DNA of 26,455 nucleotides from a virus, in UHGV virus genome UHGV-0075053, one strand, 5' to 3'. The notes under the pieces were generated by a model, which was not told the origin of the DNA, did not search any database, and saw nothing but the letters and a program-made list of their open reading frames with translations. This document shows, one piece after another, positions 1 to 24,393 of the stretch. Made by a program: the position numbers and the translations under genes. Within the stretch, counting starts at the first letter, position 1. Every line of letters begins with the position of its first letter.

Positions 1-41
1 GTGGGCCACGGAACCGGTACACCAACAGGCAATGCAGAGCC

Positions 42-67
42 TTCCCCCAAACCAACGTTTATCTCTC
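42..67. other. putative gix/pix-type recombination crossover site upstream of the invertase gene
   Basis: 26-bp TTCCCCCAAACCAACGTTTATCTCTC resembles the gix pattern TTCC..AAACC-NN-GGTTT (left half 9/12 vs gixL from memory); sits directly 5' of the invertase as in Mu gin and e14 pin. Confidence 0.35.
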
Positions 68-121
68 AAATCCTCCCCACATTATCTCAGTACTTTAACC
101 ACTCAAAAGGGAGTATTTTTA

Positions 122-694
122 ATGCTGATTGGCTACATACGTGTGTCAACAAATGACCAAAACACAGATTTGCAACGCAAAGCATTAATGTGCGCAGGAT
201 GTGAACAGATTTTTGAGGACAAAATGAGCGGAACCAAGTCGGAACGTCCAGGCCTGAAACGCGCTTTAAAGTGCCTTAAAAGAGGGGATACATTGGTGGT
301 CTGGAAGCTGGATCGGTTGGGTAGAAGAATGAAACACCTCATTGCTCTCACAGAAGAGCTACGCGCAAAAGGTGTCAATTTTCGCAGTCTGACGGATTCA
401 ATCGATACCAGCACTCCGATGGGAAGGTTCTTTTTTCATATGATGGGTGCACTGGCAGAAATGGAGCGTGAACTGATAGTTGAGCGCACGCTGGCAGGAC
501 TGGCTGCTGCGCGAGCACAAGGGAGAGTTGGAGGACGTCGCCCGAAACTGACGAAGGAGCAGCATGAGCAGATCGCAAGATTGCTCCAGAAAGGGTATGA
601 CAGAAAGCGGCTGGCAATTATCTATGATATTGGACTGTCAACGATCTACCGCTACCACCCTGTTGGGACTGTCATAACGCAACCTGAAATGTAA
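122..694 (+). CDS. pin: serine recombinase, DNA invertase (Pin/Gin/Hin/Cin family)
   Basis: Translation from ATG 122 (MLIGYIRVSTNDQNTDLQR...GDTLVVWKLDRLGR...) closely matches the e14 PinE N-terminal resolvase domain with catalytic Ser in YIRVST; C-terminal HTH region diverges. The ORF-track start at 32 is an upstream extension across the crossover site. Confidence 0.9.
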   Translation: MLIGYIRVSTNDQNTDLQRKALMCAGCEQIFEDKMSGTKSERPGLKRALKCLKRGDTLVVWKLDRLGRRMKHLIALTEELRAKGVNFRSLTDSIDTSTPMGRFFFHMMGALAEMERELIVERTLAGLAAARAQGRVGGRRPKLTKEQHEQIARLLQKGYDRKRLAIIYDIGLSTIYRYHPVGTVITQPEM

Positions 695-834: not shown

Positions 835-1260
835 TTAAAACGGTATTCCGTCCCCGTACGGATCATCGTGCTGGCCTGTCTGTTGTTTTGCCCTGTTCAG
901 TGCGTCAGTAGCCTGGCCCTGCTGGCCTTTTTTGCCGCCCGGTCGCGCCGTTCGCGCACTGATTACGCTGTCTGCGATGACCTGCCAGCCCTGCCGCGTT
1001 TCGCCGTTCTGGCCTGTCCACTGGCTTACCTGCATGTTACCCGCCACGCTCACCAGTTCGCCTTTCTGGTGTTTTGCCAGTGCGTCGGCCTGTCTGCCAA
1101 ACGCCAGGACGGATAACCACATCGTCGCCGTTCCGTCATCTGCCTGGCTGCATGGCAGGGGAACCGCCATACTCGCCATCGCCATTTGTGTTCCCTTGCT
1201 GGTGGTCTTTAACTGCGGGTCAGCCACCAGCCGCCCGTAAGCCGCTATCTGTGCTGTCAT
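835..1260 (-). CDS. SSB-like single-stranded DNA-binding protein
   Basis: OB-fold-like pattern (GRLVADPQL...TMWLSVLAFGRQADALAKHQKGELVSVAG...W) and Gly/Gln-rich tail ending DDPYGDGIPF, resembling the SSB acidic C-terminal tip; ATG at 1260 with GGAGAA upstream. Confidence 0.6.
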   Translation of the reverse strand: MTAQIAAYGRLVADPQLKTTSKGTQMAMASMAVPLPCSQADDGTATMWLSVLAFGRQADALAKHQKGELVSVAGNMQVSQWTGQNGETRQGWQVIADSVISARTARPGGKKGQQGQATDALNRAKQQTGQHDDPYGDGIPF

Positions 1261-1323
1261 GCTGTCTGTTCTCCGGTTTTAACGTTGATTGTTACGCTTG
1301 TTTACACCCTTATGGTGAAATTC

Positions 1324-1470
1324 TGCGGGTTATAATCGCACTTTTGCGGGTTATAACTGCCGTTTTGCGGGTTATTTTGGGTATTTTACGGGTTACGATT
1401 TTCCTGCCATTCCTTTAATAATCATATGGATACTGATTTATCCACAGAAATAACCCGCATAACCCGCAAA
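1324..1470. repeat. putative replication origin iterons of the satellite element
   Basis: Direct repeats TGCGGGTTAT(A) at 1324, 1345, 1366 and a degenerate copy at 1388, with exact 21-bp phasing; inverted copies ATAACCCGCATAACCCGCAAA at 1450-1470; lies between the ssb and primase genes. Confidence 0.6.
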
Positions 1471-1496
1471 ATTTTCACCCTACACGCGAGAAAAAA

Positions 1497-3623
1497 TTAA
1501 TCTTCTTCGCTTTCTGGCTGGAACATCAGCACGTAAAAAACATGCTGCTTCCCCCCAATTTTGCCGAGCGCCTTTTTCTTGTAACGGCGATCGTTACCCG
1601 CTTCCAGCATTCCGGCAGCACTCAACGCGCGGGCAAAGTGAGACGGATTAAATCCCTGTGCTATCTCACCCTCAAATACATGCGGGAACGTGTAAAAACG
1701 GAACTCGTCATCTTCGTTTCTGATACTCCCCTTTCTGTATCCGGCAAGCTCTTTAATCGGTAAATCACGCTCGTCAGAGTTGGGCCAGGGAAGGTATCTG
1801 CTGAATCCGAACGACGCTAAAAAAGCCTCTGCCTGTTCAACCATCTGTTTAAACTCCCTGTTACCCGTGCCGAACTCCTTCACCCAGGCATTAAAATTAT
1901 GCTGTATGGCATCGCGGCATTCCTGCTCATCCCAGCCAGTAACATGACCTGAAAGCACAAGCGCGGCCTCCAGTATGGCAAATCGCTCCCCCACACGGTG
2001 AACCTGTTCGCCGTAGCTCTCCGGTATCAGGTTGCGCCACCGCTCACGGCATGTCCTTACCGTGTCCTTTGCCTCCTGCTGGTGTTCTGCCAGCCATTTA
2101 ACCCACTCACGACCCGCCGCCCCGTGATTTGCTGTCCAGGCATCCTTTAACGCGTCTGCGTGCGCCTTTCCGGTGCTGTATTCGTGAAATTGCGTGGCTT
2201 TTTCCATCGGAACGTTAAGCAGGCGGACAAGCTGCCCCGCTTTGACTTTTATCCCCTCCGTTTTGAGGAATGTCTCAACGTCCATTTCTCCGGTGCTGAT
2301 TGCCACCGTTCGCCAGTGTTTTATCTCCCTGTTGCCGCCGTCCTTTGCCCCCTGTAATTTCCCGGAACCGTTAAACAGCGTATAGGCTGACGTGGACACC
2401 TCCCGCGCGTTTCCGGCCTGGCCTATTTCATCCAGGGGTAAAAGCCCGTCATTGTGTGCCTCTGCTTCGTTGGCGATACCTAACGCTGTGCCGTACCAGG
2501 TCAGCCGCTGCGCGTCCGGCTCTCCCCATAAACTTGATGCGATGTTCTGCGTTGTGGTCTTACCTGCCGATGACTGTTCGAAAAGATGTACCCCGAAGCC
2601 GTCAGCGCCCACCAGCCCGATTAATGGTGCGGATAACGATACCGCCACCCCCAGCATCATGGACGGATTACCACCAGCCAGTCGCGCCACGGTGTCGCGC
2701 CAGCCCTCCGCCGTTCCTGCCACGGAATAGCCATTAACAGCAGCAGTTTTTCCGGTAAACAGGACTGGCTTTTCGCAATCACCAATGACCGAACCGTCCG
2801 GCATGATGTACGCGCCAAAATGCCAGCCCGTTGTTGTGCTTAACTGCCATTCCTCATGGCTTCCGCTTAACTGCATCCAGTCAGCCAGGATTGCCCTGTA
2901 TTTACCGTTGGTTGTTACGTTCAGTCCGTGGTCTTTCAGCAGCCGCCAGCCGTCACGGTCGCCAATGCCACCGCACGGAACCGCCATTGTGATGACTTCA
3001 TGATTTGCTGGCTTTTTCCAGCGCATCACGCGGTAATGTTCTTTGCCGATTGTCCCCGTTCCCAGCAGTTCAAGCGGGGAACATAACCACGTCTCAGGCC
3101 GGATAATTTCGCCTGACTGCTTGTCCACTTTTGGCGTAACCCAGAAAACACCATCGGCGCGGCTTTCAACGCGGGGCTTTAATTCATCATCACCCGGGCT
3201 TTCTGTGATTTTTTTCTTTAAGGGCAACACCAGACTTTCCCCGCGCTCGTATTCGTCTTTGAGGCGAGGCAACTGGTCGGATAAATCCGCCGGGCTGGTG
3301 TCAGTTATCCCCGCGTATTCGTATACGGTCTTCACGCCAGCCACAGCCAGCAACGTGACGATCTGTGTAAGGCTACGTTCAGTGATGTGCCCTGCGCGGT
3401 AAATACGCACACACTGACGGCTATCATCAATAATTTGATAACCGGTAATATCTTTCAGGTGTTCATCTGACAGAACGACAGGCGGCACATTGTCGGCGGC
3501 AATATGCTTACCTGCCCATTCCTGCCACTCTTTCGCATGGCTCCACGCATCACTACCCGCAAAGATGATAACCTCCGTCATTTTGTCGGCTGGCTGGTGC
3601 TTTAAGTTTGGTGCGCGCTTCAT
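1497..3623 (-). CDS. primase/helicase-type replication protein of mobile elements (DUF927-like with P-loop)
   Basis: 708 aa; Walker-A-like SSAGKTTTQ; overall resemblance to primase-helicase proteins of E. coli integrative elements (from memory); start ATG overlaps the upstream gene stop (ATGA). Confidence 0.7.
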   Translation of the reverse strand: MKRAPNLKHQPADKMTEVIIFAGSDAWSHAKEWQEWAGKHIAADNVPPVVLSDEHLKDITGYQIIDDSRQCVRIYRAGHITERSLTQIVTLLAVAGVKTVYEYAGITDTSPADLSDQLPRLKDEYERGESLVLPLKKKITESPGDDELKPRVESRADGVFWVTPKVDKQSGEIIRPETWLCSPLELLGTGTIGKEHYRVMRWKKPANHEVITMAVPCGGIGDRDGWRLLKDHGLNVTTNGKYRAILADWMQLSGSHEEWQLSTTTGWHFGAYIMPDGSVIGDCEKPVLFTGKTAAVNGYSVAGTAEGWRDTVARLAGGNPSMMLGVAVSLSAPLIGLVGADGFGVHLFEQSSAGKTTTQNIASSLWGEPDAQRLTWYGTALGIANEAEAHNDGLLPLDEIGQAGNAREVSTSAYTLFNGSGKLQGAKDGGNREIKHWRTVAISTGEMDVETFLKTEGIKVKAGQLVRLLNVPMEKATQFHEYSTGKAHADALKDAWTANHGAAGREWVKWLAEHQQEAKDTVRTCRERWRNLIPESYGEQVHRVGERFAILEAALVLSGHVTGWDEQECRDAIQHNFNAWVKEFGTGNREFKQMVEQAEAFLASFGFSRYLPWPNSDERDLPIKELAGYRKGSIRNEDDEFRFYTFPHVFEGEIAQGFNPSHFARALSAAGMLEAGNDRRYKKKALGKIGGKQHVFYVLMFQPESEED

Positions 3624-3934
3624 TTTGCCTTTCTCCGTTCACGAATAATTTCACGTACTGCCTTAATGCGTTCCATACCTGTAACGCGCATGATTCTGTC
3701 GATGTCGCTTAAGTTCGCTGGTGGTGCTTTGCTTACCAGGGTGAATTCACTCTCAAAACGCATATGTGACGACACGCAGGGATGCGCATAACCTTCGCGG
3801 ATATAGGTCACGCGAAAATCATCGACGGTTTTAATCGTTATCGTGCTGCCGTATTTATCCTGGAAAATATCGCCGGGGCGGATTTCAGGCCGAGCGGAGC
3901 CGCTGGCAGTAAAGCCAGAATTTTTCTTTTTCAT
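3620..3934 (-). CDS. hypothetical protein (104 aa), translationally coupled to the primase
   Basis: ORF with ATGA overlap onto the primase start; GGAG-type RBS; no recognisable motif. Confidence 0.5.
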   Translation of the reverse strand: MKKKNSGFTASGSARPEIRPGDIFQDKYGSTITIKTVDDFRVTYIREGYAHPCVSSHMRFESEFTLVSKAPPANLSDIDRIMRVTGMERIKAVREIIRERRKAK

Positions 3935-3940
3935 GTTTTT

Positions 3941-4159
3941 TTACTCCAGAGGCCGCTTTTTAGCGAAGAGTTCAATATCAGATGTCAGAGAAACCTGTGT
4001 ATTTGCCAGGTCTAACAACAAAGAAATAAGAATTTCCTCTCTGCTATCTGATTTATCGGTGCTAAGGCTGTTCATCCACATATTGACGACTTCCCTGATT
4101 TTTTTCGCAGAGTGCATGGCTTCAAATGCCAGGTCTTCAATATCATGTTTATTTCGCAT
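3941..4159 (-). CDS. hypothetical small protein (start uncertain, 72-94 aa)
   Basis: ORF in the same operon; internal Met at 4159 gives minimal overlap with the upstream gene. Confidence 0.4.
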   Translation of the reverse strand: MRNKHDIEDLAFEAMHSAKKIREVVNMWMNSLSTDKSDSREEILISLLLDLANTQVSLTSDIELFAKKRPLE

Positions 4160-4361
4160 AATCGCCCCCGCGTAACTGGTCTGCACTAACACCCGATTTA
4201 GTGAGCATTTCAGAAAATCCCGCAAGAGTGCTGATAAATTCGTTTTCCATTAAACGGCACTGGCATTTAACCCGGCCTTTTTCCAGATACACCAGTACGC
4301 ACCCCGTATAATCTGACGGCACATTCAGCACTACAGATAAGTGCGCTTCATTATTATTCAT
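4149..4361 (-). CDS. hypothetical small protein (70 aa)
   Basis: ORF in the minus-strand operon; start overlaps the stop of the upstream gene. Confidence 0.4.
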   Translation of the reverse strand: MNNNEAHLSVVLNVPSDYTGCVLVYLEKGRVKCQCRLMENEFISTLAGFSEMLTKSGVSADQLRGGDYAK

Positions 4362-4590
4362 GGCTCACCACCTCCATATCAGCCATGATAATTTTGCTGG
4401 CCTCATTCAGTGCCATATCAGCACTAAGTTGCATTACAGCCAGTGAATGAGGAACGAAAGCCCCGGCATATTCTGTTTCGCTGGTGGCGTGCTTATGCGC
4501 CTTGTCTGCGATAACAGAAATATCAATCAGCGCGTGCATCAGCGTTTTGATGGCTTCGGCGGCTGCGTCCGGACGGGTGTTATTGCACAT
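4354..4590 (-). CDS. hypothetical small protein (78 aa)
   Basis: ORF in the operon; its ATG at 4588-4590 overlaps the stop of the upstream 68-aa gene. Confidence 0.45.
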   Translation of the reverse strand: MCNNTRPDAAAEAIKTLMHALIDISVIADKAHKHATSETEYAGAFVPHSLAVMQLSADMALNEASKIIMADMEVVSHE

Positions 4591-4786
4591 GGAGCACCCC
4601 CTGACGAATACGGGCGGCGAATACCATCACGCAGCCAGCCGGGGATTGCTGGCGTGCTTCCTGTTCGCTGGTGGCCACGATGTGAATCACGCGCGGTTGT
4701 GCGGTGCTCAGGGCGATAAAACGCCAGATGTATTTATTCAGGTTGTGCGAGTCCCGCCCTTGCGGGTGTGTGGTATGATTTCTCAT
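4580..4786 (-). CDS. hypothetical small protein (68 aa), first gene of the leftward satellite operon
   Basis: ATG at 4786 preceded by GAGGT RBS; located just downstream of the palindromic operator region; the longer 301-aa ORF-track version is judged an artefact. Confidence 0.5.
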   Translation of the reverse strand: MRNHTTHPQGRDSHNLNKYIWRFIALSTAQPRVIHIVATSEQEARQQSPAGCVMVFAARIRQGVLHVQ

Positions 4787-4863
4787 AGCTACCTCGATAC
4801 TCTTGCTATCGTTGGTGGTTAGACGCCCTGCATGTGTTGCGAGCACTGCGGGGCGTTGCTTAA

Positions 4864-4964
4864 TTTGAGTGACAAAACTCAAACTGTGCGCACAGATTAA
4901 AATCATGTGTGCGCACATGTCAATACTTAACATCTCATTTTTTTTGCTGTATTGTGTGCGCCCA
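4864..4964. promoter_or_regulatory. divergent promoter/operator region with TGTGCGCACA palindromes
   Basis: 7-bp inverted repeat TTTGAGT-N6-ACTCAAA (4864-4883); 12-bp perfect palindrome CTGTGCGCACAG (4884-4895); second TGTGCGCACA core (4908-4917); degenerate copy TGTGTGCGCCCA (4953-4964); between divergent genes at 4786 and 4992. Confidence 0.6.
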
Positions 4965-4991
4965 TAAAGTCCATTTAAGTGAGGTGCATCA

Positions 4992-5189
4992 ATGTCTAGC
5001 GGTAACACAAACAACAAATCAGCAAAGAAAAATATTCGATTCCCACATGAGCTTATAGATGGGATTGATGCCAGCGTTGAACAAGAAAAATTAACTAATC
5101 CTAGTGCTAATTTTTCCGCATGGGTCTTAGATGCCTGTGGACGCAAATTAAAATATGAACAGCGCCGGAAGGCCAAAGAATCAGAATAA
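4992..5189 (+). CDS. ribbon-helix-helix (Arc/CopG-like) putative transcriptional regulator
   Basis: 65 aa; KNIRFPHELIDGIDASV...ANFSAWVLDAC fits a beta-strand plus two-helix RHH pattern; GTGAGGTG RBS 6 nt before ATG; directly downstream of the palindromic operators. Confidence 0.55.
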   Translation: MSSGNTNNKSAKKNIRFPHELIDGIDASVEQEKLTNPSANFSAWVLDACGRKLKYEQRRKAKESE

Positions 5190-5231
5190 TCACTATCAGC
5201 GCCGTGGTGTGAGTAACTACGGCGCATTGCT

Positions 5232-5420
5232 ATGCAGGACAACACAATGACCGATAAAGAATTGACCAAAACATTATCACCGACACGGAAAAGACGGCGC
5301 AGAAAGATAGAGCATGAATCAGAAAGATTCGCACCTTGTTCGTTTGCTCTTGAGAAATTCCTTAAAGAGCGCAGGAAAAAGCTCTCGTTGCAAACCTTGG
5401 AACGAACCAAATCTGACTGA
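5232..5420 (+). CDS. hypothetical small basic protein (start 5232 or 5247)
   Basis: ORF downstream of the RHH gene on the same strand; Arg/Lys-rich; no recognisable motif. Confidence 0.35.
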   Translation: MQDNTMTDKELTKTLSPTRKRRRRKIEHESERFAPCSFALEKFLKERRKKLSLQTLERTKSD

Positions 5421-5611
5421 TCACATTGCCCACCAGCCGCAAATGTGGCATTGTTGGTGATGCTTTTGTTTTCCCTTGTTCCCACTGGCTACCCTTTTGC
5501 GGTCGCCTTTGTTTTGCCTGTTATCCGGCAATAGTGGCGCTTCGTCACCTGTCTGATATAATTCCACTGCTTATATTCATTTTTTGCGCAGTAGGTTAAT
5601 TGTTCGCAAGG

Positions 5612-5642
5612 GCGCTCCGGCAACGGGGCGCTTTTTGTTTTT
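5612..5642 (+). terminator. rho-independent terminator
   Basis: Stem GCGCTCC/GGGGCGC with 6-nt loop followed by TTTTTGTTTTT. Confidence 0.55.
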
Positions 5643-5800
5643 ACCCACCAGCACAATAAAAATCTTCATTTTCCATTTTTGTAAAATTTCATGCTTTCCG
5701 GACGACTGGTCATATGTCATTTTTTAGCAGAAGATTTTGCCTTGCTGGTGGGTAGCTTCCCGGTCAACACGATGTACCGTATAATCAACACCGCGTGTGG

Positions 5801-6382
5801 TTACTGAATACGCTCACCAAAGTAAAACTCAGGCTGGTATTCACGTATCAGCCTTTTTTCTTCTTCCTCCAGCTCACGCTTTTTGCGCTTACATGCCTGT
5901 AGCTCCCTCCCCTTCTCGCTGGCACTTATCTGATATTGCTCTTTGCGGCGGGAAAAATCCTGTAATGCGCCCCACGGGATACCATAAGCCCCCGTTTTTC
6001 TGATACCCGGTATCACATTTCTGAATACCCAGTTACTGAAACGATGGGCGAACGTGCCAGGAGTAGCAGCTTTGCGACTTCTGGCAATCAGCTTGTAAAA
6101 GCCAGATTCAGAAACGACGCTATGATTTGGATTTCCGCGAATACCGTAAGTTAAAGTTACGGTATTACTTTCATCATCATCCAGAGCTTGCAACGCCATG
6201 CGTGAATTGGATAATTCAAGCGCCGCACAAACATCCTTTGCAACAAACCACGGATCGCCGTTCAGATACACCACACGAACATCCACGCCATCAAAACGTA
6301 GAACGACCTGATCACGAATATCGCAGAATTTTTTCACTGGACGTGCATTCCCCTTGCCCATCATGGCAATATTTTTATTCAT
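5801..6382 (-). CDS. Bro-N domain protein (phage antirepressor-like)
   Basis: N-terminal VRVVYLNGDPWFVAKDVCAALEL motif typical of the Bro-N family; ATG at 6382 with GAGGTAG RBS (ORF-track start at 6385 is GTG). Confidence 0.65.
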   Translation of the reverse strand: MNKNIAMMGKGNARPVKKFCDIRDQVVLRFDGVDVRVVYLNGDPWFVAKDVCAALELSNSRMALQALDDDESNTVTLTYGIRGNPNHSVVSESGFYKLIARSRKAATPGTFAHRFSNWVFRNVIPGIRKTGAYGIPWGALQDFSRRKEQYQISASEKGRELQACKRKKRELEEEEKRLIREYQPEFYFGERIQ

Positions 6383-6401
6383 CACTTTCTACCTCACATA
6401 C

Positions 6402-6429
6402 AAAAAACCCCGCATTGCGTGGTGCGGGG
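6402..6429 (-). terminator. rho-independent terminator (minus strand)
   Basis: Stem CCCCGCA/TGCGGGG with 8-nt loop; T-run on the minus strand (A-run 6402-6407 on plus). Confidence 0.55.
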
Positions 6430-6439
6430 TTGTCGGTAA

Positions 6440-6718
6440 TTACTTATTGGCGTTTTTGTATGGGCTGTTTACTTCCTTTACTCCTGGCGGATGCATAACC
6501 CACCAGAGCACATCAGAGAGCAACCAGGAAACAGACACTTTCCCTAAATGAGCACGAGCAGGAAATGCTCCCTCCTGTTCAAGTACCCAACGTCTGCTTC
6601 TTGAAAGCCCGGTACGATTGGCACACTCATGTTCGCGTATACGGCGATCATACGGTTCGCCATGCTCTTTCAGAATCTGAATGCGTTCTTCGGGTGTAGG
6701 ATAAATAAATTTTTGCAT
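6440..6718 (-). CDS. AlpA-family DNA-binding protein (second copy)
   Basis: ECANRTGLSRSRRWVLEQEGAFPARAHLGKVSVSWLLSDVLWWV resembles the AlpA/Phage_AlpA HTH pattern; start taken at ATG 6718 because the ORF-track start 6748 overlaps the upstream terminator. Confidence 0.55.
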   Translation of the reverse strand: MQKFIYPTPEERIQILKEHGEPYDRRIREHECANRTGLSRSRRWVLEQEGAFPARAHLGKVSVSWLLSDVLWWVMHPPGVKEVNSPYKNANK

Positions 6719-6730
6719 AAAAATATCACC

Positions 6731-6758
6731 TATAAAAAAACCCGCCAAAAGACGGGTT
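6731..6758 (-). terminator. rho-independent terminator (minus strand)
   Basis: Stem AACCCG/CGGGTT with 8-nt loop; T-run on the minus strand. Confidence 0.5.
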
Positions 6759-6781
6759 GATTATATCTCATTTAATTTAGC

Positions 6782-7015
6782 TCAGGGTTTCCATTCACCC
6801 TTTACCCATTCCAGCACCTCAGATAAGCGCCAGACTTTTGTTTGTGGGCCAATACATATTTTTCGTGGAAATTTTCCTTCCTTTTCAAGTAACGATCTGT
6901 GTCTCCTGCCAAGAGCGGTTAACCATGCACATTCATCTTCCTTAATCATCCTGTCGATTGTTTTATCATTTTCAAGTTCTTCACGCGTAACTATTTGAAT
7001 CATTACCGTCACCAC
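6782..7015 (-). CDS. AlpA-family regulator adjacent to the integrase (start uncertain: 7015, 7003 or 6949)
   Basis: ECAWLTALGRRHRSLLEKEGKFPRKICIGPQTKVWRLSEVLEWV matches the AlpA pattern; position immediately downstream of int as in P4-like islands. Confidence 0.6.
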   Translation of the reverse strand: MVTVMIQIVTREELENDKTIDRMIKEDECAWLTALGRRHRSLLEKEGKFPRKICIGPQTKVWRLSEVLEWVKGEWKP

Positions 7016-8204
7016 TAATTAGCTTATTCAGATAGTCATACCACCAATTCATAGCTTCTTTTTTTCTGTCCATATACTGGCTTCTGTTATAAACCCCGGC
7101 AACACCGCCTAATGTGTGCCCAAGCAACTGTTCAACCACATTATGTTCAAAACCATGATCACTTAGCTTTGTGGCAAACACTCTTCGCATATCATGCGCC
7201 GTCCATTTCTCCGAGTGTTTCATCCTTTTCCATGTCTTACCGATAGTTACGCTTGCCGTACACTGACGCATATCAAACCCAATCACATTTTCTTTGTTAC
7301 CTGTTATTTTTTTTAACGTAACTAACCAGTTAAACATGCCATCAGGAATCGGTCTGATTATTTCCCTGCCATTTTTGCTATGATCAGCGGGAACGCGCCA
7401 TAATTTCTTATCAAAATCCCACTCTCCCCAGGAGGACAGTAATACTTCTGACAGTCGACAACCAAAAACTACCAGGAAACGTAAAATAATTCGGTTTTCA
7501 TATGATAATTCGTGATTGTCATAATCAGTATTAATACTTCGCCATAAATCTCTGATTTCATCATCTGTTAAAACCCTGCTTCTTCGCGCAGACTTTTTTC
7601 CCACATCACAGACCTCAAGATCATCAATTTCATGACTAATCGCGTATTTTCTTACCCGACAAAATTTAAGCGCCTGTTTTGATATACGCAACAAAGCTCC
7701 GGCCTGTACAGGTGCTACTTTTTTTATTTTGTCAAAACACTTGATCCACATAGATATAGAGCAATCACTAAGTGGTACATGACCAATCACCGGATAAATA
7801 TGTTTACCAAAGCACTGCCTGATATGTTCTGCTCCCCTACGCTTATCCATTGCATAATTATCAAGCCAGTATTCAAGTGCCTCACGAACGGTAACAGGTT
7901 GCAAGGTGGCTTCCCGTTCAATTTTTATCTGAATCCGTGGATCTCTGCCCTCCGCAAGCCAGGTTCGACACTGATCGCGCATCTCTCTCGCTGATTTGAG
8001 ACTCAGATCAGGATATTTCCCAAGTGTCAGCCAGATGGGCGCGGTTCCCCTTCCCGCCAGTCTGTAAAAGAAAACAAAACTAACACATCCGTATTTACTG
8101 ACCCGTACCGAAAGCCCGTTACCATCAGCGATGGTTTCCTGCCTCTCACTCCTGCGCCCAAGCAGGGAACGAAGTTTTTTATCGCTCAGTTTGTTTAGCG
8201 CCAT
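6981..8204 (-). CDS. int: tyrosine integrase, P4-like
   Basis: N-terminal arm-binding pattern (LSDKKLRSL...GNGLSVRVSKYG...FVFFYR), C-terminal catalytic region with HxxR-like LLGH and conserved Tyr context; start set to ATG 8204 (MALNKLSDKK). Confidence 0.85.
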   Translation of the reverse strand: MALNKLSDKKLRSLLGRRSERQETIADGNGLSVRVSKYGCVSFVFFYRLAGRGTAPIWLTLGKYPDLSLKSAREMRDQCRTWLAEGRDPRIQIKIEREATLQPVTVREALEYWLDNYAMDKRRGAEHIRQCFGKHIYPVIGHVPLSDCSISMWIKCFDKIKKVAPVQAGALLRISKQALKFCRVRKYAISHEIDDLEVCDVGKKSARRSRVLTDDEIRDLWRSINTDYDNHELSYENRIILRFLVVFGCRLSEVLLSSWGEWDFDKKLWRVPADHSKNGREIIRPIPDGMFNWLVTLKKITGNKENVIGFDMRQCTASVTIGKTWKRMKHSEKWTAHDMRRVFATKLSDHGFEHNVVEQLLGHTLGGVAGVYNRSQYMDRKKEAMNWWYDYLNKLISGDGNDSNSYA

Positions 8205-8209
8205 GTGAT

Positions 8210-9403
8210 TTATAACCCGTTTTTGCAATACACAGTGCAATACACAAATGATGAAAACAGCCAGAACCTTCCAGAAAAAACAAAAACGACGAACAAGAAA
8301 AAATCTTTTTCTTTCATTTGGTTACTAAAAAAATCAGGACAGGTCGCACTGTTGTTACGGCGTGATGTTACTTTCTTGGTAAAAAAATTCACCCGCGCAG
8401 AGACCTGCTCCTTCGCTTTTTTCGCCAGACGACGCAGATCATCCCAGCGTTTACAGATGCCCAGGCCAGGATTCGCTTTCTGCCAGACCGTTTCATCAAA
8501 CGGATCATCTCCCTCATCAAGCGTGTAAATGATCGCAAAGTAAGAGTCGTCTTTTACAGCGCCCTCCACGTCGCTGTTATAGCCTCGCAATACCTTGATG
8601 GCGTAATCACGCTGCTCGTAACAAATCCCTTCCTTGTTAAAGCCAGCCGTGGTGATACCAAATAACAGGGACTGCAGACGGGCACCGGTTGCCGTTTCCA
8701 GAACGTCCCACACGTCGCGGGTTTTATGTGCATGCAGCTCATCAATAATGGCGCAGTGGATGTTCAGACCGTCCAGGTTGTTTGCATCCGAGGAAAGCGG
8801 TTCAAATTTTGATGCGCTCTGCTCCTGGTAAATCGCCAGCTTGTTGAAATCAAACAACCGCCCGAGTGTCGACCGGGCTTTTCTGACCATATTTTTGGCG
8901 TCTTCAAACACGATTCTGGCCTGGTCAAGCGTGGTTGCGGCTGAATACACCTCAGCTCCGCCTTCACTATCTGCCCCCGTCATATACAGACCGATACCCG
9001 ATGACAGGGTTGATTTTGCGTTTTTACGGGCAACTTCGTTGTATGCTGTCCGGAACCGGCGCACCATCACCGGGCGTCCACTGCCATCGCTGCGCATGAC
9101 AACTTCCCCGGTTTCTTCATTCACCAGCGGAATGACAAAACCAAAAATATTAATGAGGATAAACACATGCCAGTCCATCAACTCAATGGGCTGACCTGCC
9201 AGCGCCCCTTTCACATGGGGTACAAATTTGTAGAAATTAAGGATGTGCTGTGCACGAGGTTCACTGAAATAAATCCCCCGCTCTTCGCCGTACTTCAGAT
9301 CATCAAGAAAACGCTGGCAGGCCAGACGGACAAATTCGCCAGCAACAATTTCTCCTGCAACAACACGTTCGGCGTAGCGGATCCCGTCAGCCACTTTTGC
9401 CAT
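8210..9403 (-). pseudogene. terminase large subunit, N-terminal ATPase portion only (C-terminally truncated)
   Basis: N-terminal ~340 aa look terminase-like; the last ~55 aa (about 8210-8400) are low-complexity read-through; full-length TerL would be far longer; ends next to the integrase gene. Confidence 0.7.
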
Positions 9404-10728: not shown

Positions 10729-10908
10729 TCCCCGCTTTATCCAAATTGCATTGCCAGAATGCCGACAACAGACTGACATTCAAATCCTGACTACCTCCAA
10801 TAGGCTGAGCATCCACCTATATAGTTTTAATTTTCATCAATCCATTTAACTATCGTTTAATTGTTGTCACATAGGATTCTGCCATTTTTAACAATGCAGG
10901 ATAATAAG

Positions 10909-13151: not shown

Positions 13152-13226
<75 letters not shown>

Positions 13227-13342
13227 ATCCTGGAACTCGGCTACCTGATTTTCATTCTGCACTGAATATCGAGAGAAGCTCTCTTTATTCGAGCCGGTAA
13301 GCGAACTTATCGTCTCGGGCTACGCCATCGCGTGGCCGAAAT

Positions 13343-13427
<85 letters not shown>

Positions 13428-13435
13428 GGACTTGA

Positions 13436-13511
<76 letters not shown>

Positions 13512-13513
13512 AC

Positions 13514-13590
13514 TGGACCGCCACCGGGGACTCGAACCTCGCACACTCAACTTAAAGGGTTGACGCTCTTTCCTGATGAGCTAGTGGCGG
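13514..13590 (-). tRNA. atypical tRNA-like gene, anticodon UUU (Lys-like) with unusual anticodon loop CCUUUAA
   Basis: Cloverleaf can be drawn: acceptor CCGCCAC/GTGGCGG, D-arm GCTC/GAGC, anticodon stem TCAAC/GTTGA, T-loop TTCGAGT, 3' CCA; but C at position 33 and an A-C mismatch in the T-stem are non-canonical. Confidence 0.45.
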
Positions 13591-13591
13591 T

Positions 13592-13667
13592 TGGTGGCCC
13601 TTGCTGGATTTGAACCAGCGACCTGGCGATTATGAGTCGCTCGCTCTCACCACTGAGCTAAAGGGCC
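13592..13667 (-). tRNA. tRNA with CAU anticodon, ileX/ileY-like (tRNA-Ile2 type; Met not excluded)
   Basis: Reverse complement GGCCCTTTAGCTCAGTGGTGAGAGCGAGCGACTCATAATCGCCAGGTCGCTGGTTCAAATCCAGCAAGGGCCACCA resembles E. coli ileX from memory. Confidence 0.7.
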
Positions 13668-15059: not shown

Positions 15060-15446
15060 ATGGCGAACACTAAATCCTACCTGGCAATGCAGGCATGGTT
15101 TACCACCCTTATCACTGCGGGATTGAATTTCCTTTTTGACTGGCTTCCTCAATTAGCCTTCTTCAAATCATTGGCGCCTGGAGCTGCTGTCGGCTTATCT
15201 CATGTGGTAATTCTTCTTATCGCTTACATAGGTTTGCCTACGCTTAATGATGTAAGAATGAAAAGGGAAATAAAAACGGCCAGAAAATTCATCACGAACT
15301 GCCTGGCCAACCCTAACCTAACACCAGACCAAATTGCGCACTACAACCAATGTCTTATCGATCTAGACAATAAGCTATTAAAAAACATAAATATTCGTAT
15401 TGATGCTTTATCTGACGCCGAATCGAAAGCTCAAGCAAACGAGTAG
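15060..15446 (+). CDS. small membrane protein (128 aa, two predicted TM helices)
   Basis: ATG immediately follows the upstream TGA; GGAAGG RBS; hydrophobic segments AWFTTLITAGLNFLFDWL and AAVGLSHVVILLIAYIGL. Confidence 0.55.
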   Translation: MANTKSYLAMQAWFTTLITAGLNFLFDWLPQLAFFKSLAPGAAVGLSHVVILLIAYIGLPTLNDVRMKREIKTARKFITNCLANPNLTPDQIAHYNQCLIDLDNKLLKNINIRIDALSDAESKAQANE

Positions 15447-15459
15447 TAACAGTCATAAC

Positions 15460-15819
15460 TTATGATAGAATCAAGCATATACATCCATCAATAAAGCCTA
15501 ATGCAGTTTGCAGCTCCTTTCTTATAGTTCCATCTGAGCACCTGCGTTTCTTCGCGATTGAGCGTAGAGAAACACCAATAACAAAGTGAGCTATGAGCAG
15601 CTCATATTCCTCTGGTTTATACTTTCGCAACCGAGCCACACAACCGTCTATCATGATGCCTTCATCATCATCACACTGGAGACGTGACTTTTTGCCATGT
15701 GGCAAAAGCCCCTTGAAGCCCGCTGCTATCGGTTGCCAATCGACACCGCTATTTTCTGCTGCAGCCCATGCCCCCCAGCGATCTAAAACCTCATACATAT
15801 CACGCCCCATTACCATCAC
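15460..15819 (-). CDS. late antiterminator Q (Qin QuuQ / phage 82 type); start probably an internal Met
   Basis: YEVLDRWGAWAA...WQPIAAGFKGLLP...SRLQCDDD resembles E. coli QuuD/QuuQ (from memory); directly downstream of rusA. Confidence 0.75.
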   Translation of the reverse strand: MMVMGRDMYEVLDRWGAWAAAENSGVDWQPIAAGFKGLLPHGKKSRLQCDDDEGIMIDGCVARLRKYKPEEYELLIAHFVIGVSLRSIAKKRRCSDGTIRKELQTALGFIDGCICLILS

Positions 15820-16177
15820 CTCTGATTTCGCAAATCTTCACGCCCAGTCGCCCACCAGGAACGAGCTGACCGCGCACAATATTGATTTCATCAAACTGCT
15901 CGTCGTCTATAAGTAGTCCGGCATGCGTCAGCGCATCCAGTGGTGCCTTCAGGATATTGTCCAGGTCACGACGGCGCTTATCCGGTGGCTCTGCAATAAT
16001 CTTTATCGCCAGCCTTCCGGACAGGTTTAATTTCAGCCGCTGCTGGCGAACAATTAGCGCCACATCACGGCGATAACGCTTTCCGGCCTCCGAGATGAAA
16101 TACGTATTGCCATGACGTCGCCAGTAGGTATTCACCGTCGGCGGGTAAGGCAAAACAAATTCTATGCGTTCAGTCAT
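15800..16177 (-). CDS. rusA: Holliday junction resolvase RusA
   Basis: PPDKRRRDLDNILKAPLDALTHAGLLIDDEQ matches the RusA catalytic core. Confidence 0.85.
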   Translation of the reverse strand: MTERIEFVLPYPPTVNTYWRRHGNTYFISEAGKRYRRDVALIVRQQRLKLNLSGRLAIKIIAEPPDKRRRDLDNILKAPLDALTHAGLLIDDEQFDEINIVRGQLVPGGRLGVKICEIRGDGNGA

Positions 16178-17305
16178 TCATGCTTTCCACTTCAGAACAC
16201 CCGAATTTCTCGCGTGCATTAAAAAACGAATCAGCAACAACAGCTGGCTGCCGTGTTTTTCTTCAAAATCTTTTACCCCGGCGTGCAGTTCGTTATGACA
16301 TTTACGGCACAGCGGAATAACAAACAAATCATCAGCCTTTGTTCCCATACCTCCCAGGCCATGACCAATGATGTGATGCGGATCATCTGCCTGATTACCG
16401 CACGTCATGCATTTCTGCGTTTTTACCCAGCGCGTGTATACAGGCATCTCTTCCCGTTGTGGTTTCTGGCGCTGGAGATACTGAACCGGAGACTCCGGAT
16501 CAACGGCAATGCTGACCACCGTCTTTTCCTGTGGCGGGTTTTGCTGGTGGGCATGAGGCAACGGCGCAAGATTTTTTGTGCGCTGCTTCAGTATGCTGGT
16601 GGCGGTCTGCTCTCCCGGTACGATATCGCTTTCGCGGTACAAGGAGCGGATTTTTTCCGCACGTAACCCCAGAGAACGACGTAATACTGCCTCCGGAAGC
16701 GCGTCCGCCACCTGATTGCAGACCGCCCACCAGGATAATTCAGCCAGCGACAATTCCCGCTCCTGCGTGCCATTCATTGCATGGCGTATGACGTCAATCA
16801 TCCATGCTGACAGGTTTTGATGAGCAAGCTGCCCGAGTGATTCGGATGTCTGGTCACGCAACTGGTTGTCGCAGTGCCAGCACAACACCATCGCGCCGGT
16901 ACCGTAACGATGTATGACGATTTCACTGTGATGATAGTCACCATGAGGCCACTGGCAGGATTTGACATGACGCAACAGCCAGTCAGACAGTGCCCCAGCG
17001 CCGCCAGCAGCACGAATCACCCGCTCATCGCTGAAAAATGGCAGTAATGATTTATCCTCCGCCAGCGGCTGGCGAACGGCAGGGACGACTCCGGACGGCA
17101 GACCGCGCATGCTTTTCGGTTCAGGCTCCACCAGCACTCGAGGGTTATGAAATACTTGCATGGATTCACGGCCCGGCCTAAGGACCACCAGCCCAAGTTC
17201 CGGTACCAGAACAGGTCGAAGTAATATCCGCACGTTACCTCCAGATCCGTTGCTGGTATGTGCGGGATGGGCGCGGTGGGCGTTCGGAATAAGGGAGCCT
17301 GACAT
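16178..17305 (-). CDS. DUF968-family protein (YdfU-like) with C-terminal HNH-like zinc motif; true start possibly ATG 17161
   Basis: C-terminus CMTCGNQADDPHHIIGHGLGGMGTKADDLFVIPLCRKCHNELH; position between rusA and hok region as in Qin. Confidence 0.65.
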   Translation of the reverse strand: MSGSLIPNAHRAHPAHTSNGSGGNVRILLRPVLVPELGLVVLRPGRESMQVFHNPRVLVEPEPKSMRGLPSGVVPAVRQPLAEDKSLLPFFSDERVIRAAGGAGALSDWLLRHVKSCQWPHGDYHHSEIVIHRYGTGAMVLCWHCDNQLRDQTSESLGQLAHQNLSAWMIDVIRHAMNGTQERELSLAELSWWAVCNQVADALPEAVLRRSLGLRAEKIRSLYRESDIVPGEQTATSILKQRTKNLAPLPHAHQQNPPQEKTVVSIAVDPESPVQYLQRQKPQREEMPVYTRWVKTQKCMTCGNQADDPHHIIGHGLGGMGTKADDLFVIPLCRKCHNELHAGVKDFEEKHGSQLLLLIRFLMHARNSGVLKWKA

Positions 17306-18345: not shown

Positions 18346-18501
18346 TTACTCCTCAGGTTCGTAAGCTGTGAAGACAGCGACCTCCGTCTGGCCGGTTCGG
18401 ATTCGTACCTCGCAGAGGTCTTTCCTCGTTACCAGTGCCGTCACTATGACGGTTAAACAGATGACGATCAGGGCGATTAACATCGCCTTTTGCTGCTTCA
18501 T
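18346..18501 (-). CDS. hokD: Hok/Gef-family small membrane toxin (HokD/RelF-like)
   Basis: MKQQKAMLIALIVICLTVIVTALVTRKDLCEVRIRTGQTEVAVFTAYEPEE matches E. coli HokD from memory; start set to ATG 18501. Confidence 0.9.
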   Translation of the reverse strand: MKQQKAMLIALIVICLTVIVTALVTRKDLCEVRIRTGQTEVAVFTAYEPEE

Positions 18502-19125
18502 AGCCTGCTTCTCCTTGCCTTTCGGCACGTAAGAGGCTAACCTAGATTTGCCGTTCATAGATTGAGCCTCAGATTAATGTTAAGCGTCTTGCAGGACGCG
18601 TAATGTTAACTGGGGCTTTTCTCTATCTGCCTTTGGTGTTCATGCCTGAGACAGATAGCCTCAAGCACCCGCAGCCATTCTACTTAACTCCCGTTACCTC
18701 GCCAATATAAAATCAATCAGAAAAGCGATCCATAAGAACAACAGCAAGACAATAAATTGCCATTACAGCTGCAATAGCCAGCGCACATTTGAGAACCAGC
18801 ACGACAACCTCCTGTATTGGACGTACACCAGTTCTGATAAATATGAGGCTGTCTCATCATTGATGAGATACAACTATTGGGTATAGTTTCTGTGATTTTG
18901 TTCTGTAGAAATGGAACACAACAACCAGTCACCACCAGCACTTCTTTAAATACGCCAAGTCCGACGCAAGCTAACCTTCTAGTCCGCTTTGAGCGAAAAG
19001 CAGACTGTCACGCGTTGAAGTTAATTGTATTACTTAGATAAACACTATCATTTTCCTGACGTTAAGTTGTATCTTTGATAGGATTAAAAAACGTATAGAT
19101 AGCTTATGCTACTGAGGGAATAAAA

Positions 19126-24013: not shown

Positions 24014-24342
24014 TAGCTAACCAACGAAGCTAAGGTTGGTAATTAAGGAGTTCTCCACGGGTGAAGTGGAGTGCGTGCGCCGGACACGGGTGAACATCCG
24101 GCACTGACAGTTTACTGAAAGGATATTTCTCTGAAAAGTCAGAGCATAACGCGAAAGTACACGGAGAAGCTCGTCTCTCTGTACTTTGTCGTTAAATTTA
24201 ATTCGACCGTGCGCTTCCGGTTGTGGCAATCCGCGAAATGGCGCGGCGGTAAGTATGGCGGGGTTATTCCTTCCCCTTGAGGACACCGGGTTGTCAGGCT
24301 GACCATACGCTTAAGTGACAGCCCCGCCACAATATCCATGTG

Positions 24343-24393
24343 TAGTCTTTGGTGGCATCAGTTCTACTCCGTGACTGCTCTGCCGCCCTTTTT
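24343..24393 (+). ncRNA. dicF: DicF small RNA (ends approximate)
   Basis: GGTGGCATCAGTTCTACTCCGTGACTGCTCTGCCGCCCTTTTT matches the 3' part of E. coli DicF including its terminator hairpin (from memory); about 175 nt upstream of dicB. Confidence 0.65.

Follow-up and report, generated by a model that had tools for sequence, protein, structure and literature searches.

What is controlled by the intergenic region at positions 4864-4991 of the virus genome UHGV-0075053, and which protein acts upon it? The stretch of DNA analyzed here, referred to as the window, is 26,455 nt in length, and in it this region lies between the start codon of an icd-like gene (4786, minus strand) and a 65-amino-acid open reading frame (ORF) read in the opposite direction (4992-5189, plus strand), which we identify as ylcI. 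A preliminary description pictured the region as a divergent promoter switch in which palindromes are bound by the product of the downstream gene, a ribbon-helix-helix (RHH) protein, and proposed that it serves as the immunity/induction switch of a satellite element. Our analysis, which relies on sequence comparison and predicted structure, suggests that the region is probably the control cassette of a Gram-negative phage-inducible chromosomal island (PICI), in which YlcI would repress the replication operon and also regulate its own gene.

Palindromic boxes between the icd-like gene and ylcI

The palindrome TGTGCGCACA is present in two exact copies in the window, at 4885-4894 and 4908-4917, compared to 0.09 copies expected, and none of 100 dinucleotide shuffles contained two or more. 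The first copy widens to a perfect 12-bp palindrome, CTGTGCGCACAG (4884-4895). A degenerate third copy, TGTGCGCCCA, differs from TGTGCGCACA at one position and is found at 4955-4964, all three sites being located within 80 bp. A separate 7-bp inverted repeat, TTTGAGT-N6-ACTCAAA, has its arms at 4864-4870 and 4877-4883. All of the sequence features listed in the preliminary description (the two perfect copies, the 12-bp extension, the degenerate copy, the inverted repeat, and the divergent starts at 4786 and 4992) were recovered, none of them displaced by more than 1 nt. The search for the palindrome outside the region, which that description had proposed, yielded no further copy with one mismatch or less in the window, and matches with two mismatches or less showed no enrichment there. 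We refer to the three proposed operators as O1, O2, and O3, in order of increasing coordinate.

Conservation of the three-box layout

Related loci were collected from a set containing one genome per species (12 loci), from IMG/VR (52 loci), from complete E. coli genomes, and from strain CFT073; in total 58 loci were analyzed, representing several genera of the Enterobacterales and 51 distinct intergenic regions. A 1-kb query (4500-5500) matched 1772 of 5426 complete E. coli genomes. The same plan is found in almost all of the 58 loci: O2 is positioned directly to the left of a conserved GTCAA, the spacing from O1 to O2 is mostly 23 bp (25-26 or 33-35 bp in a few cases), and O3 starts approximately 39 nt upstream of the ylcI start codon. 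A comparison over the 130-bp region covered nine elements whose boxes are of the TGTGCGCACA type, among them elements of E. coli, Rahnella, Klebsiella, and Erwinia; the invariant columns corresponded almost entirely to the three boxes, the GTCAA, parts of the rightward promoter, and the GG of the Shine-Dalgarno site. The O3 position is occupied by a perfect TGTGCGCACA in other genera, the mismatch in the window resulting from an A-to-C change in this E. coli lineage. The number of boxes also varies. One IMG/VR locus (L034, 1000-1200) carries four boxes as the result of a 23-bp tandem duplication, and in another (L038, 1000-1200) O1 and O2 have become a single box through a 23-bp deletion, variants consistent with recombination between direct repeats.

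These comparisons bear on whether the palindromes could be functionless, as chance occurrences or as residual repeats. The number of sites with one mismatch or less (3 in the window, compared to 1.44 expected) is not by itself unusual and would be compatible with chance, but the excess of exact copies and the clustering of the sites are not, and the invariance of the boxes across genera in which the flanks have diverged refutes it; we consider the probability of this explanation to be virtually nil.

The layout is also found in EcCICFT073, the prototype island of E. coli CFT073 (L076, 9474-9853). Here ylcI (C_RS30120) is divergent from an icd-like gene, and the boxes are GGTGTGGCCCAC, present twice, and CTGTCCCCCAC. 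We found no description of this ylcI/three-box module in the literature searched.

Predicted divergent promoters and the proposed mode of repression

The positions of the boxes can be related to two predicted promoters. The GTCAA next to O2 reads TTGAC on the minus strand, and TTGAC(G/A) occupies the leftward -35 position in 45 of the 51 distinct regions. A TAnnnT hexamer is found at the leftward -10 position in 46 regions, with a spacing of 18 bp in 40 of these and 17 bp in the other 6. On the ylcI side, a TAT(G/T)GT hexamer ending about 36 nt before the start codon recurs in many of the related loci. The leftward promoter thus appears from the alignment to be conserved, with O2 in its spacer and O1 over the -10 element and start. 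The earlier placement of the boxes on two divergent promoters therefore agrees with positions that are kept across genera.

From these positions we infer the direction of regulation. YlcI, probably in the form of an RHH dimer, would bind the three 10-13-bp boxes. Binding to O2 within the spacer of the leftward promoter (TTGACA, 18 bp, TAATCT), and to O1 over the -10/+1 region, would place the repressor such that its occupancy would block transcription of the operon encoding the icd-like protein, primase, and SSB. Binding to O3 over the -10/+1 region of the ylcI promoter would result in negative autoregulation at high repressor levels, O3 being weakened by its single mismatch.

An alternative to protein binding is that the palindromes function as nucleic-acid structure, either RNA hairpins or a terminator for transcripts that arrive from the alpA/bro side, and a scan does report a terminator-like site on the minus strand (4919 to 4904) that consists of O2 and ATTTTAAT. 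The stem is only 6 bp, however, and what is conserved is the sequence of the boxes at three promoter-linked positions rather than their pairing potential. The terminator was dropped as a general explanation because in many cassette types the boxes at these positions are not palindromic. We give hardly any credence to a structural role.

Probable reader of the boxes

Boxes are more alike within an element than between elements. O1 and O2 of the same locus are identical at 11.0 of 13 positions and O2 and O3 at 10.6 of 13, whereas O2 boxes of different loci are identical at 7.6 of 13, a pattern that a shared binding protein would produce. The type of box follows the three residues of YlcI that precede its IRFP strand: KKN is found with TGTGCGCACA, YKG with TGTTTAAACA, KKH with GTGTGCACCCAC, and TKK with GTGCGGCCACAC. 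In a partial Mantel test with the remainder of YlcI as the control, operator distance correlated with distance across the 10 N-terminal residues (r = 0.49, permutation p ~2e-4), statistics that are inflated by the shared ancestry of the loci.

Judged from the alignments, the boundaries of the exchanged DNA are more decisive than co-variation for identifying the box reader. When the window was compared to E. coli elements carrying six other types of box, DNA homology ended at 4828-4861 and resumed at 5152-5183, and the flanks on either side were 83-97% identical. Because homology breaks at these two points, one exchangeable cassette comprises both promoters, the boxes, and roughly the first 56 codons of ylcI. 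Operators and the DNA-reading part of YlcI would in this way be swapped together, giving rise to many specificity ('immunity') types. A case of replacement is found in E. coli O55:H7 TB182A (L021, 2110-2283), where the ylcI slot contains an unannotated 57-amino-acid Arc-like ORF (MSTPLEKRSPPYQMRLPEDF...) that matches PHROG 228, 'Arc-like repressor' (E = 1.5e-6), and both the O1 and the O2 position are occupied by a different palindrome, ATGGTAATTACCAT. The RefSeq annotation of this site consists only of an opposite-strand pseudogene, and similar matches were obtained in O157:H7.

The boxes might instead be read by another protein, such as AlpA, the Icd-like protein, the BRO-N/antirepressor, a replication protein that uses iterons, or a host factor. 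PHROG 6196 and PHROG 1743 call Icd-like proteins repressors, repeated boxes near replication genes can be iterons, and the TGTG...CACA of the boxes loosely resembles the half-sites of the host regulator CRP. Each of these candidates can be compared to the distribution of box types. L002 and CFT073 encode an identical AlpA (WP_000953274.1) together with boxes of different sequence (GTGTTGAACAC and GGTGTGGCCCAC, respectively), the Icd-like protein is 85-94% identical across the six other box types, and the same cassette is found beside a replication gene of either the primase type or the RepA-helicase type; AlpA, the Icd-like protein, and the replicase were rejected on these grounds. The BRO genes are situated beyond the limits of the cassette, and in many cases they are pseudogenes. 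The 6-bp spacer of a CRP site is absent, and a host factor cannot account for at least a dozen box types that change together with ylcI. A reader other than YlcI is therefore very improbable. With their positions kept, their concerted evolution, and their joint inheritance with the DNA-binding part of YlcI, the boxes appear to behave as operators of the adjacent small protein, as had been expected of them.

Family and probable fold of YlcI

The 65-amino-acid protein belongs to the YlcI/YnfO family based on matches to NF041551 (59 bits, cut-off 30) and PF13132 (DUF3950; 28.3 bits, cut-off 25), and also matches PHROG 949 (E = 1.4e-27), a group of unknown function. It does not match any helix-turn-helix (HTH) model and, at its small size, does not belong with the Stl/CI-type master repressors.

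Several indications point to an RHH fold. In the AlphaFold model of the monomer (predicted local distance difference test score of 77), residues 1-18 are unstructured and are followed by helices at 19-35 and 41-64; the strand of an RHH protein forms only in the dimer. Alignment by hhalign places YlcI in register with the strand and helix A of Arc, RFPHELID being matched with RWPREVLD (KSAKKNIRFPHELIDGIDA and KMPQFNLRWPREVLDLVRK, respectively; E = 0.0085), at a probability below 5%. An exhaustive profile search gave 76 distant relatives of YlcI, of which four match CopG_antitoxin, one RHH_5, and one HicB. A widened YlcI profile had as its best match among PDB sequences the RHH protein CdbA (E = 0.096); with the profile of close homologues, only an insignificant match to 'Protein delta' was obtained. 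Counting against the assignment, no Pfam RHH model matched YlcI at E <= 0.1, a Foldseek search of the monomer model against the PDB gave 0 hits, and every one of the RHH indicators taken singly falls below normal significance. The RHH label given to the protein in the preliminary description is thus backed by indications that are mutually consistent (the helices, the register with Arc, the distant relatives, and CdbA) and individually weak, and we regard YlcI as likely but not established to be an RHH protein.

Gln9, Asn11, and Arg13 of Arc contact bases in its operator. By analogy, the invariant R16 of YlcI may read the nearly universal outer GTG/CAC of the boxes, and the variable residue 14 may read their variable centre.

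Predicted leader RNA of the replication operon

The preliminary description had included the 7-bp inverted repeat in the operator switch. Its sequence is not conserved in the nine-element footprint, and it is better read as a hairpin close to the 5' end of the leftward mRNA. Most of 33 loci are predicted to have a hairpin near the 5' end of this mRNA, its sequence varying among them (mean z of -1.15, with z < -1.5 in 13 loci). Farther along the leader, the hairpins exhibit compensatory double changes in 10 of 15 consensus pairs among the 33 loci, and a single-stranded UCUAACCAC between the two leader hairpins is conserved. No Rfam family was found in the regulatory region. For the P4-type RNAs C4 and isrK, nothing in the window reached the gathering threshold and nothing within 4500-6900 matched at E <= 5, and RNA immunity of the P4 type was thus not found.

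The satellite element and its genes

The leftward unit had been described as the satellite replication operon, and its gene content (icd-like, DUF4222, DUF927 primase/helicase, and SSB) is that of such an operon. Table 1 gives the coordinates of these genes and of the regulatory features. The Icd-like product is classified by NCBIfam as a cell-division-inhibitor-like protein and by PHROGs as a 'transcriptional repressor' (phrog_6196, E = 3e-44). A 301-amino-acid ORF (4580-5485, minus strand), which lies antisense to ylcI and extends across the intergenic region, was rejected as an accidental open frame.

Table 1. Positions of genes, proposed operators, and predicted signals in the window
Feature	Position	Strand	Remarks
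O1 operator (proposed)	4884..4895		CTGTGCGCACAG, core TGTGCGCACA at 4885-4894; overlaps 3' end of leftward -10 and predicted leftward transcription start
O2 operator (proposed)	4908..4917		TGTGCGCACA; fills -35/-10 spacer of leftward promoter; 23 bp from O1, start to start
O3 operator (proposed)	4955..4964		TGTGCGCCCA, 1 mismatch; overlaps -10/+1 of rightward ylcI promoter
Leftward (icd/replication) -35, predicted	4918..4923	-	TTGACA
Leftward -10, predicted	4894..4899	-	TAATCT, 18-bp spacer
Rightward (ylcI) promoter, predicted	4927..4955	+	TTAACA (4927-4932), 17 bp, TATTGT (4950-4955); from consensus scan
7-bp inverted repeat, predicted hairpin	4864..4883	-	about 5 nt from 5' end of leftward mRNA; -10.2 kcal/mol, z = -2.0 as RNA
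Structured 5' leader of replication operon	4786..4862	-	GC-rich hairpin B (4823-4856) and small hairpin by Shine-Dalgarno site
Hypervariable 'immunity-like' cassette	4860..5160 (about)		5' hairpin, O1-O3, both promoters, ylcI codons 1 to ~56
ylcI	4992..5189	+	65 amino acids, YlcI/YnfO (DUF3950), probable RHH operator binder; proposed beta-strand K13-N14-I15-R16-F17-P18; helices 19-35 and 41-64
Conserved 57-amino-acid ORF	5247..5420	+	3' of ylcI; possible second gene of rightward unit
Intrinsic terminator, strong	5608-5635	+	closes rightward unit
Leftward operon, proposed to be under operator control	835..4786	-	icd-like, three small ORFs, DUF4222, DUF927 primase/helicase, SSB; matches RefSeq annotation of L001
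icd-like gene	4580-4786	-	NCBIfam NF033153, 71 bits
DUF4222	3620-3934	-	
DUF927 primase/helicase	1497-3623	-	
SSB	835-1260	-	
BRO-N/antirepressor-like gene	5801-6385	-	
AlpA-like genes (two)	6782-7015 and 6440-6748	-	
Integrase	6981-8240	-	

The rightward unit may contain two genes, as a strong terminator is located past a 57-amino-acid ORF that follows ylcI. This ORF (core EHESERFAPCxFALExFLKE) is open in 19 sequence variants, contains an in-frame 6-nt indel, shows a mild excess of third-position changes, and matches PHROG 21027, which is of unknown function.

The type of satellite could be determined by comparison with E. coli locus L001, which is 96-98% identical to the window and continues into genes for PerC, major capsid, protease, portal, connector, HNH, and terS. 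The window has the int, two AlpA-like genes, DUF927 primase, and SSB of a Gram-negative PICI, and L001 has in addition the capsid module. A truncated ORF for the terminase large subunit (8210-9403, minus strand) abuts int, and the corresponding junction of L001 carries the RefSeq annotation 'terminase large subunit, incomplete'. The capsid genes of L001 and the broken terminase flank identify the element as a Gram-negative PICI of the capsid-forming type, integrated in a prophage late gene. The terminase junction shows the integration within a late gene of a lambdoid prophage that is characteristic of helper-embedded PICIs, a configuration defined previously (PMC10111431). In the supplement of that study, the site group 'A_Terminase_1_132' is mapped as Int, AlpA, AlpA, -DUF3950, ... 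DUF4222, Primase, SSB, the '-DUF3950' appearing without comment at the position of ylcI.

Homology between the window and L001 starts only at 773, the PerC/capsid/portal/terS module being absent from the window, and part of the satellite may have been lost or rearranged here. A gene for an invertase of the Pin/Hin type (32-694, plus strand) is found in place of the capsid module. In the surrounding prophage, matches at the Rfam gathering threshold were obtained for five tRNA genes (13155-13667, minus strand), the sok antitoxin RNA (18496-18670, minus strand), and DicF RNA (24337-24388, plus strand). L001 contains an IS2 insertion near the iss/lysis region (15315-16646), and the window has no IS2 at the corresponding position (~10811-10816). 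A search of a phage genome collection gave a single, marginal match of 75 bp.

Relationship of the cassette to induction

The proposal that this region is an immunity/induction switch fared differently in its two parts. The reading as a repressor/operator cassette is consistent with the data above, whereas work on Gram-negative PICIs assigns induction to the activator AlpA, over-expression of AlpA alone being sufficient to induce EcCICFT073 (PMC6092414). Since the ylcI/three-box module is present in EcCICFT073, AlpA must circumvent or relieve it; YlcI is therefore either bypassed or not the dominant lock, and the cassette would be at most a second, repressive layer.

The effect of AlpA is one of several observations that weigh against YlcI as the repressor of the leftward operon. 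The leftward -10 element, TAATCT, is a poor match, agreeing with the consensus at 3 of 6 positions, and for this reason the leftward promoter was not reported by the consensus promoter scan. In the cassette types of L015, L017, and L020 the boxes are non-palindromic or otherwise arranged, so that binding of one dimer per palindrome may not hold generally. The three-box divergent promoter is not present at the ylcI locus of K-12, only an unrelated 17-bp palindrome being found 164 nt upstream, and membership in the family alone does not therefore carry an operator-binding role; the YlcI family may have more than one role. This K-12 gene, in the DLP12 prophage (L077, 5252-5834), is located beside a lambda-like cos site and nohD. 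No paper on the function of YlcI, YnfO, or DUF3950 was found, the ExcludonFinder paper listing ybcW-ylcI of K-12 and saying nothing more of ylcI.

An alternative is a self-contained, autoregulated module, in which YlcI binds the boxes as an antitoxin-like or accessory protein, perhaps together with the 57-amino-acid ORF, or one in which binding activates or fine-tunes the leftward promoter. RHH proteins are common as autoregulated antitoxins, and distant relatives of YlcI match CopG_antitoxin and HicB. Moreover, ylcI, the 57-amino-acid ORF, and the strong terminator form a compact rightward unit, and the presence of the module in EcCICFT073 does not prevent its induction by AlpA alone. Of the three boxes, however, two are on the leftward core promoter, in the spacer and over the -10/+1 region (46 of 51 regions), which are classic positions for repression. 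The best conserved boxes are O1 and O2 rather than the autoregulatory O3, and the 57-amino-acid ORF has no match to a toxin family. Taking both sides into account, we judge either form of this alternative to be improbable, and repression of the leftward operon by YlcI to be the better reading of the cassette.

Speculatively, AlpA-driven transcription from the int/alpA/bro side could proceed antisense through ylcI and lower the level of YlcI, so that the leftward promoter would be unlocked. Strong intrinsic terminators on the minus strand are found directly after each AlpA-like gene (6758-6739 and 6431-6406), which argues against simple read-through. AlpA of Pseudomonas is reported to be an antiterminator (PMC7969949, PMC9371919), and this makes the terminators suggestive; they bear on how AlpA-dependent transcription could reach the replication operon.

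A broader proposal would assign the hypervariable YlcI RHH cassette a primary role in Gram-negative PICIs, including EcCICFT073 and the capsid-forming PICIs. The cassette would be the master repressor that silences the replication operon, would define heteroimmune groups among co-resident islands, and would be the real point of induction, this occurring through AlpA-driven antisense transcription, a helper-phage protein, or the BRO/Ant antirepressor of the island. We consider this broader proposal rather unlikely.

Implications and comparison with known systems

We did not find a description of an RHH repressor, or of any other repressor, in Gram-negative PICIs within the searchable literature. 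What would be new is thus the assignment, based on comparative evidence, of a repressor role to DUF3950 and of a repressor-type cassette to Gram-negative PICIs, including the prototype EcCICFT073. If correct, this gives a function and defined operator sequences to the DUF3950 (YlcI/YnfO) proteins, and adds a repressive layer to the regulation of Gram-negative PICIs, which has been described so far only in terms of AlpA (PMC6092414). As EcCICFT073, the best-studied island, carries the module, a system in which to put this directly to the test already exists. The diversity of box/protein types suggests that satellites residing in the same cell fall into immunity-like groups, and these types would in addition constitute a collection of small orthogonal repressor/operator pairs ready for use.

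The proposed mechanism is a conventional one, that of a small repressor with operators on divergent promoters. In the immI region of phage P22, the RHH repressors Mnt and Arc act at the divergent Pant and Pmnt promoters. The PICI cassette resembles immI in having a small, probably RHH-type repressor divergent from the operon it would control, operators on the core promoter, and probable autoregulation; YlcI can also be aligned in register with the beta-strand and helix A of Arc, and an Arc-like ORF replaces ylcI in one island. It differs in that YlcI lacks significant membership in the Arc family, in having three separated boxes of 10-13 bp rather than a single 17-21-bp operator for a tetramer, in that the operon concerned encodes replication functions rather than an antirepressor, and in being part of a satellite rather than of a phage.

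Among the satellites themselves, the Gram-positive PICIs (the Staphylococcus aureus pathogenicity islands, or SaPIs) have Stl and Rpr as their master repressors (PMC6092414). As with these, the regulator is divergent from the excision/replication operon and is located between the int side and the pri/rep side. Stl repressors, in contrast, are much larger HTH proteins inactivated by helper-phage proteins, whereas YlcI is a probable RHH protein of 65 residues without a known antirepressor, and Gram-negative PICIs additionally need the activator AlpA. The likeness to an Stl/CI-type repressor is accordingly one of map position only.

Small RHH proteins also serve as copy-control or global repressors of plasmids, for example CopG of pMV158 and omega of pSM19035. 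As is proposed for YlcI, these repress replication genes by binding short repeated sites that overlap the promoter. CopG differs from YlcI in being co-transcribed with repB, and omega differs in binding arrays of 7-bp heptads and in serving also in partition; the resemblance of YlcI to either is one of arrangement, not of demonstrated sequence membership. True members of its family (DUF3950) are YlcI (DLP12) and YnfO (Qin) of E. coli K-12, the K-12 ylcI being the one found by cos/nohD without a three-box promoter.

Lambdoid phages have a tripartite OR between the divergent promoters PR and PRM, and their immunity cassettes are exchanged between heteroimmune phages. The cassette described here has in common with them three proposed operators shared by back-to-back promoters, the weakest being on the repressor's own promoter, as well as a repressor and operators that are swapped as a unit between conserved flanks to give many specificity types. 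It is unlike them in the fold of the protein, in lacking a second regulator of the Cro type and an SOS-cleavable domain, and in its box spacings of 23 and 47 bp. In function and layout, the closest counterparts of the YlcI cassette are Mnt/Arc of P22, Stl/Rpr, and these lambdoid immunity cassettes.

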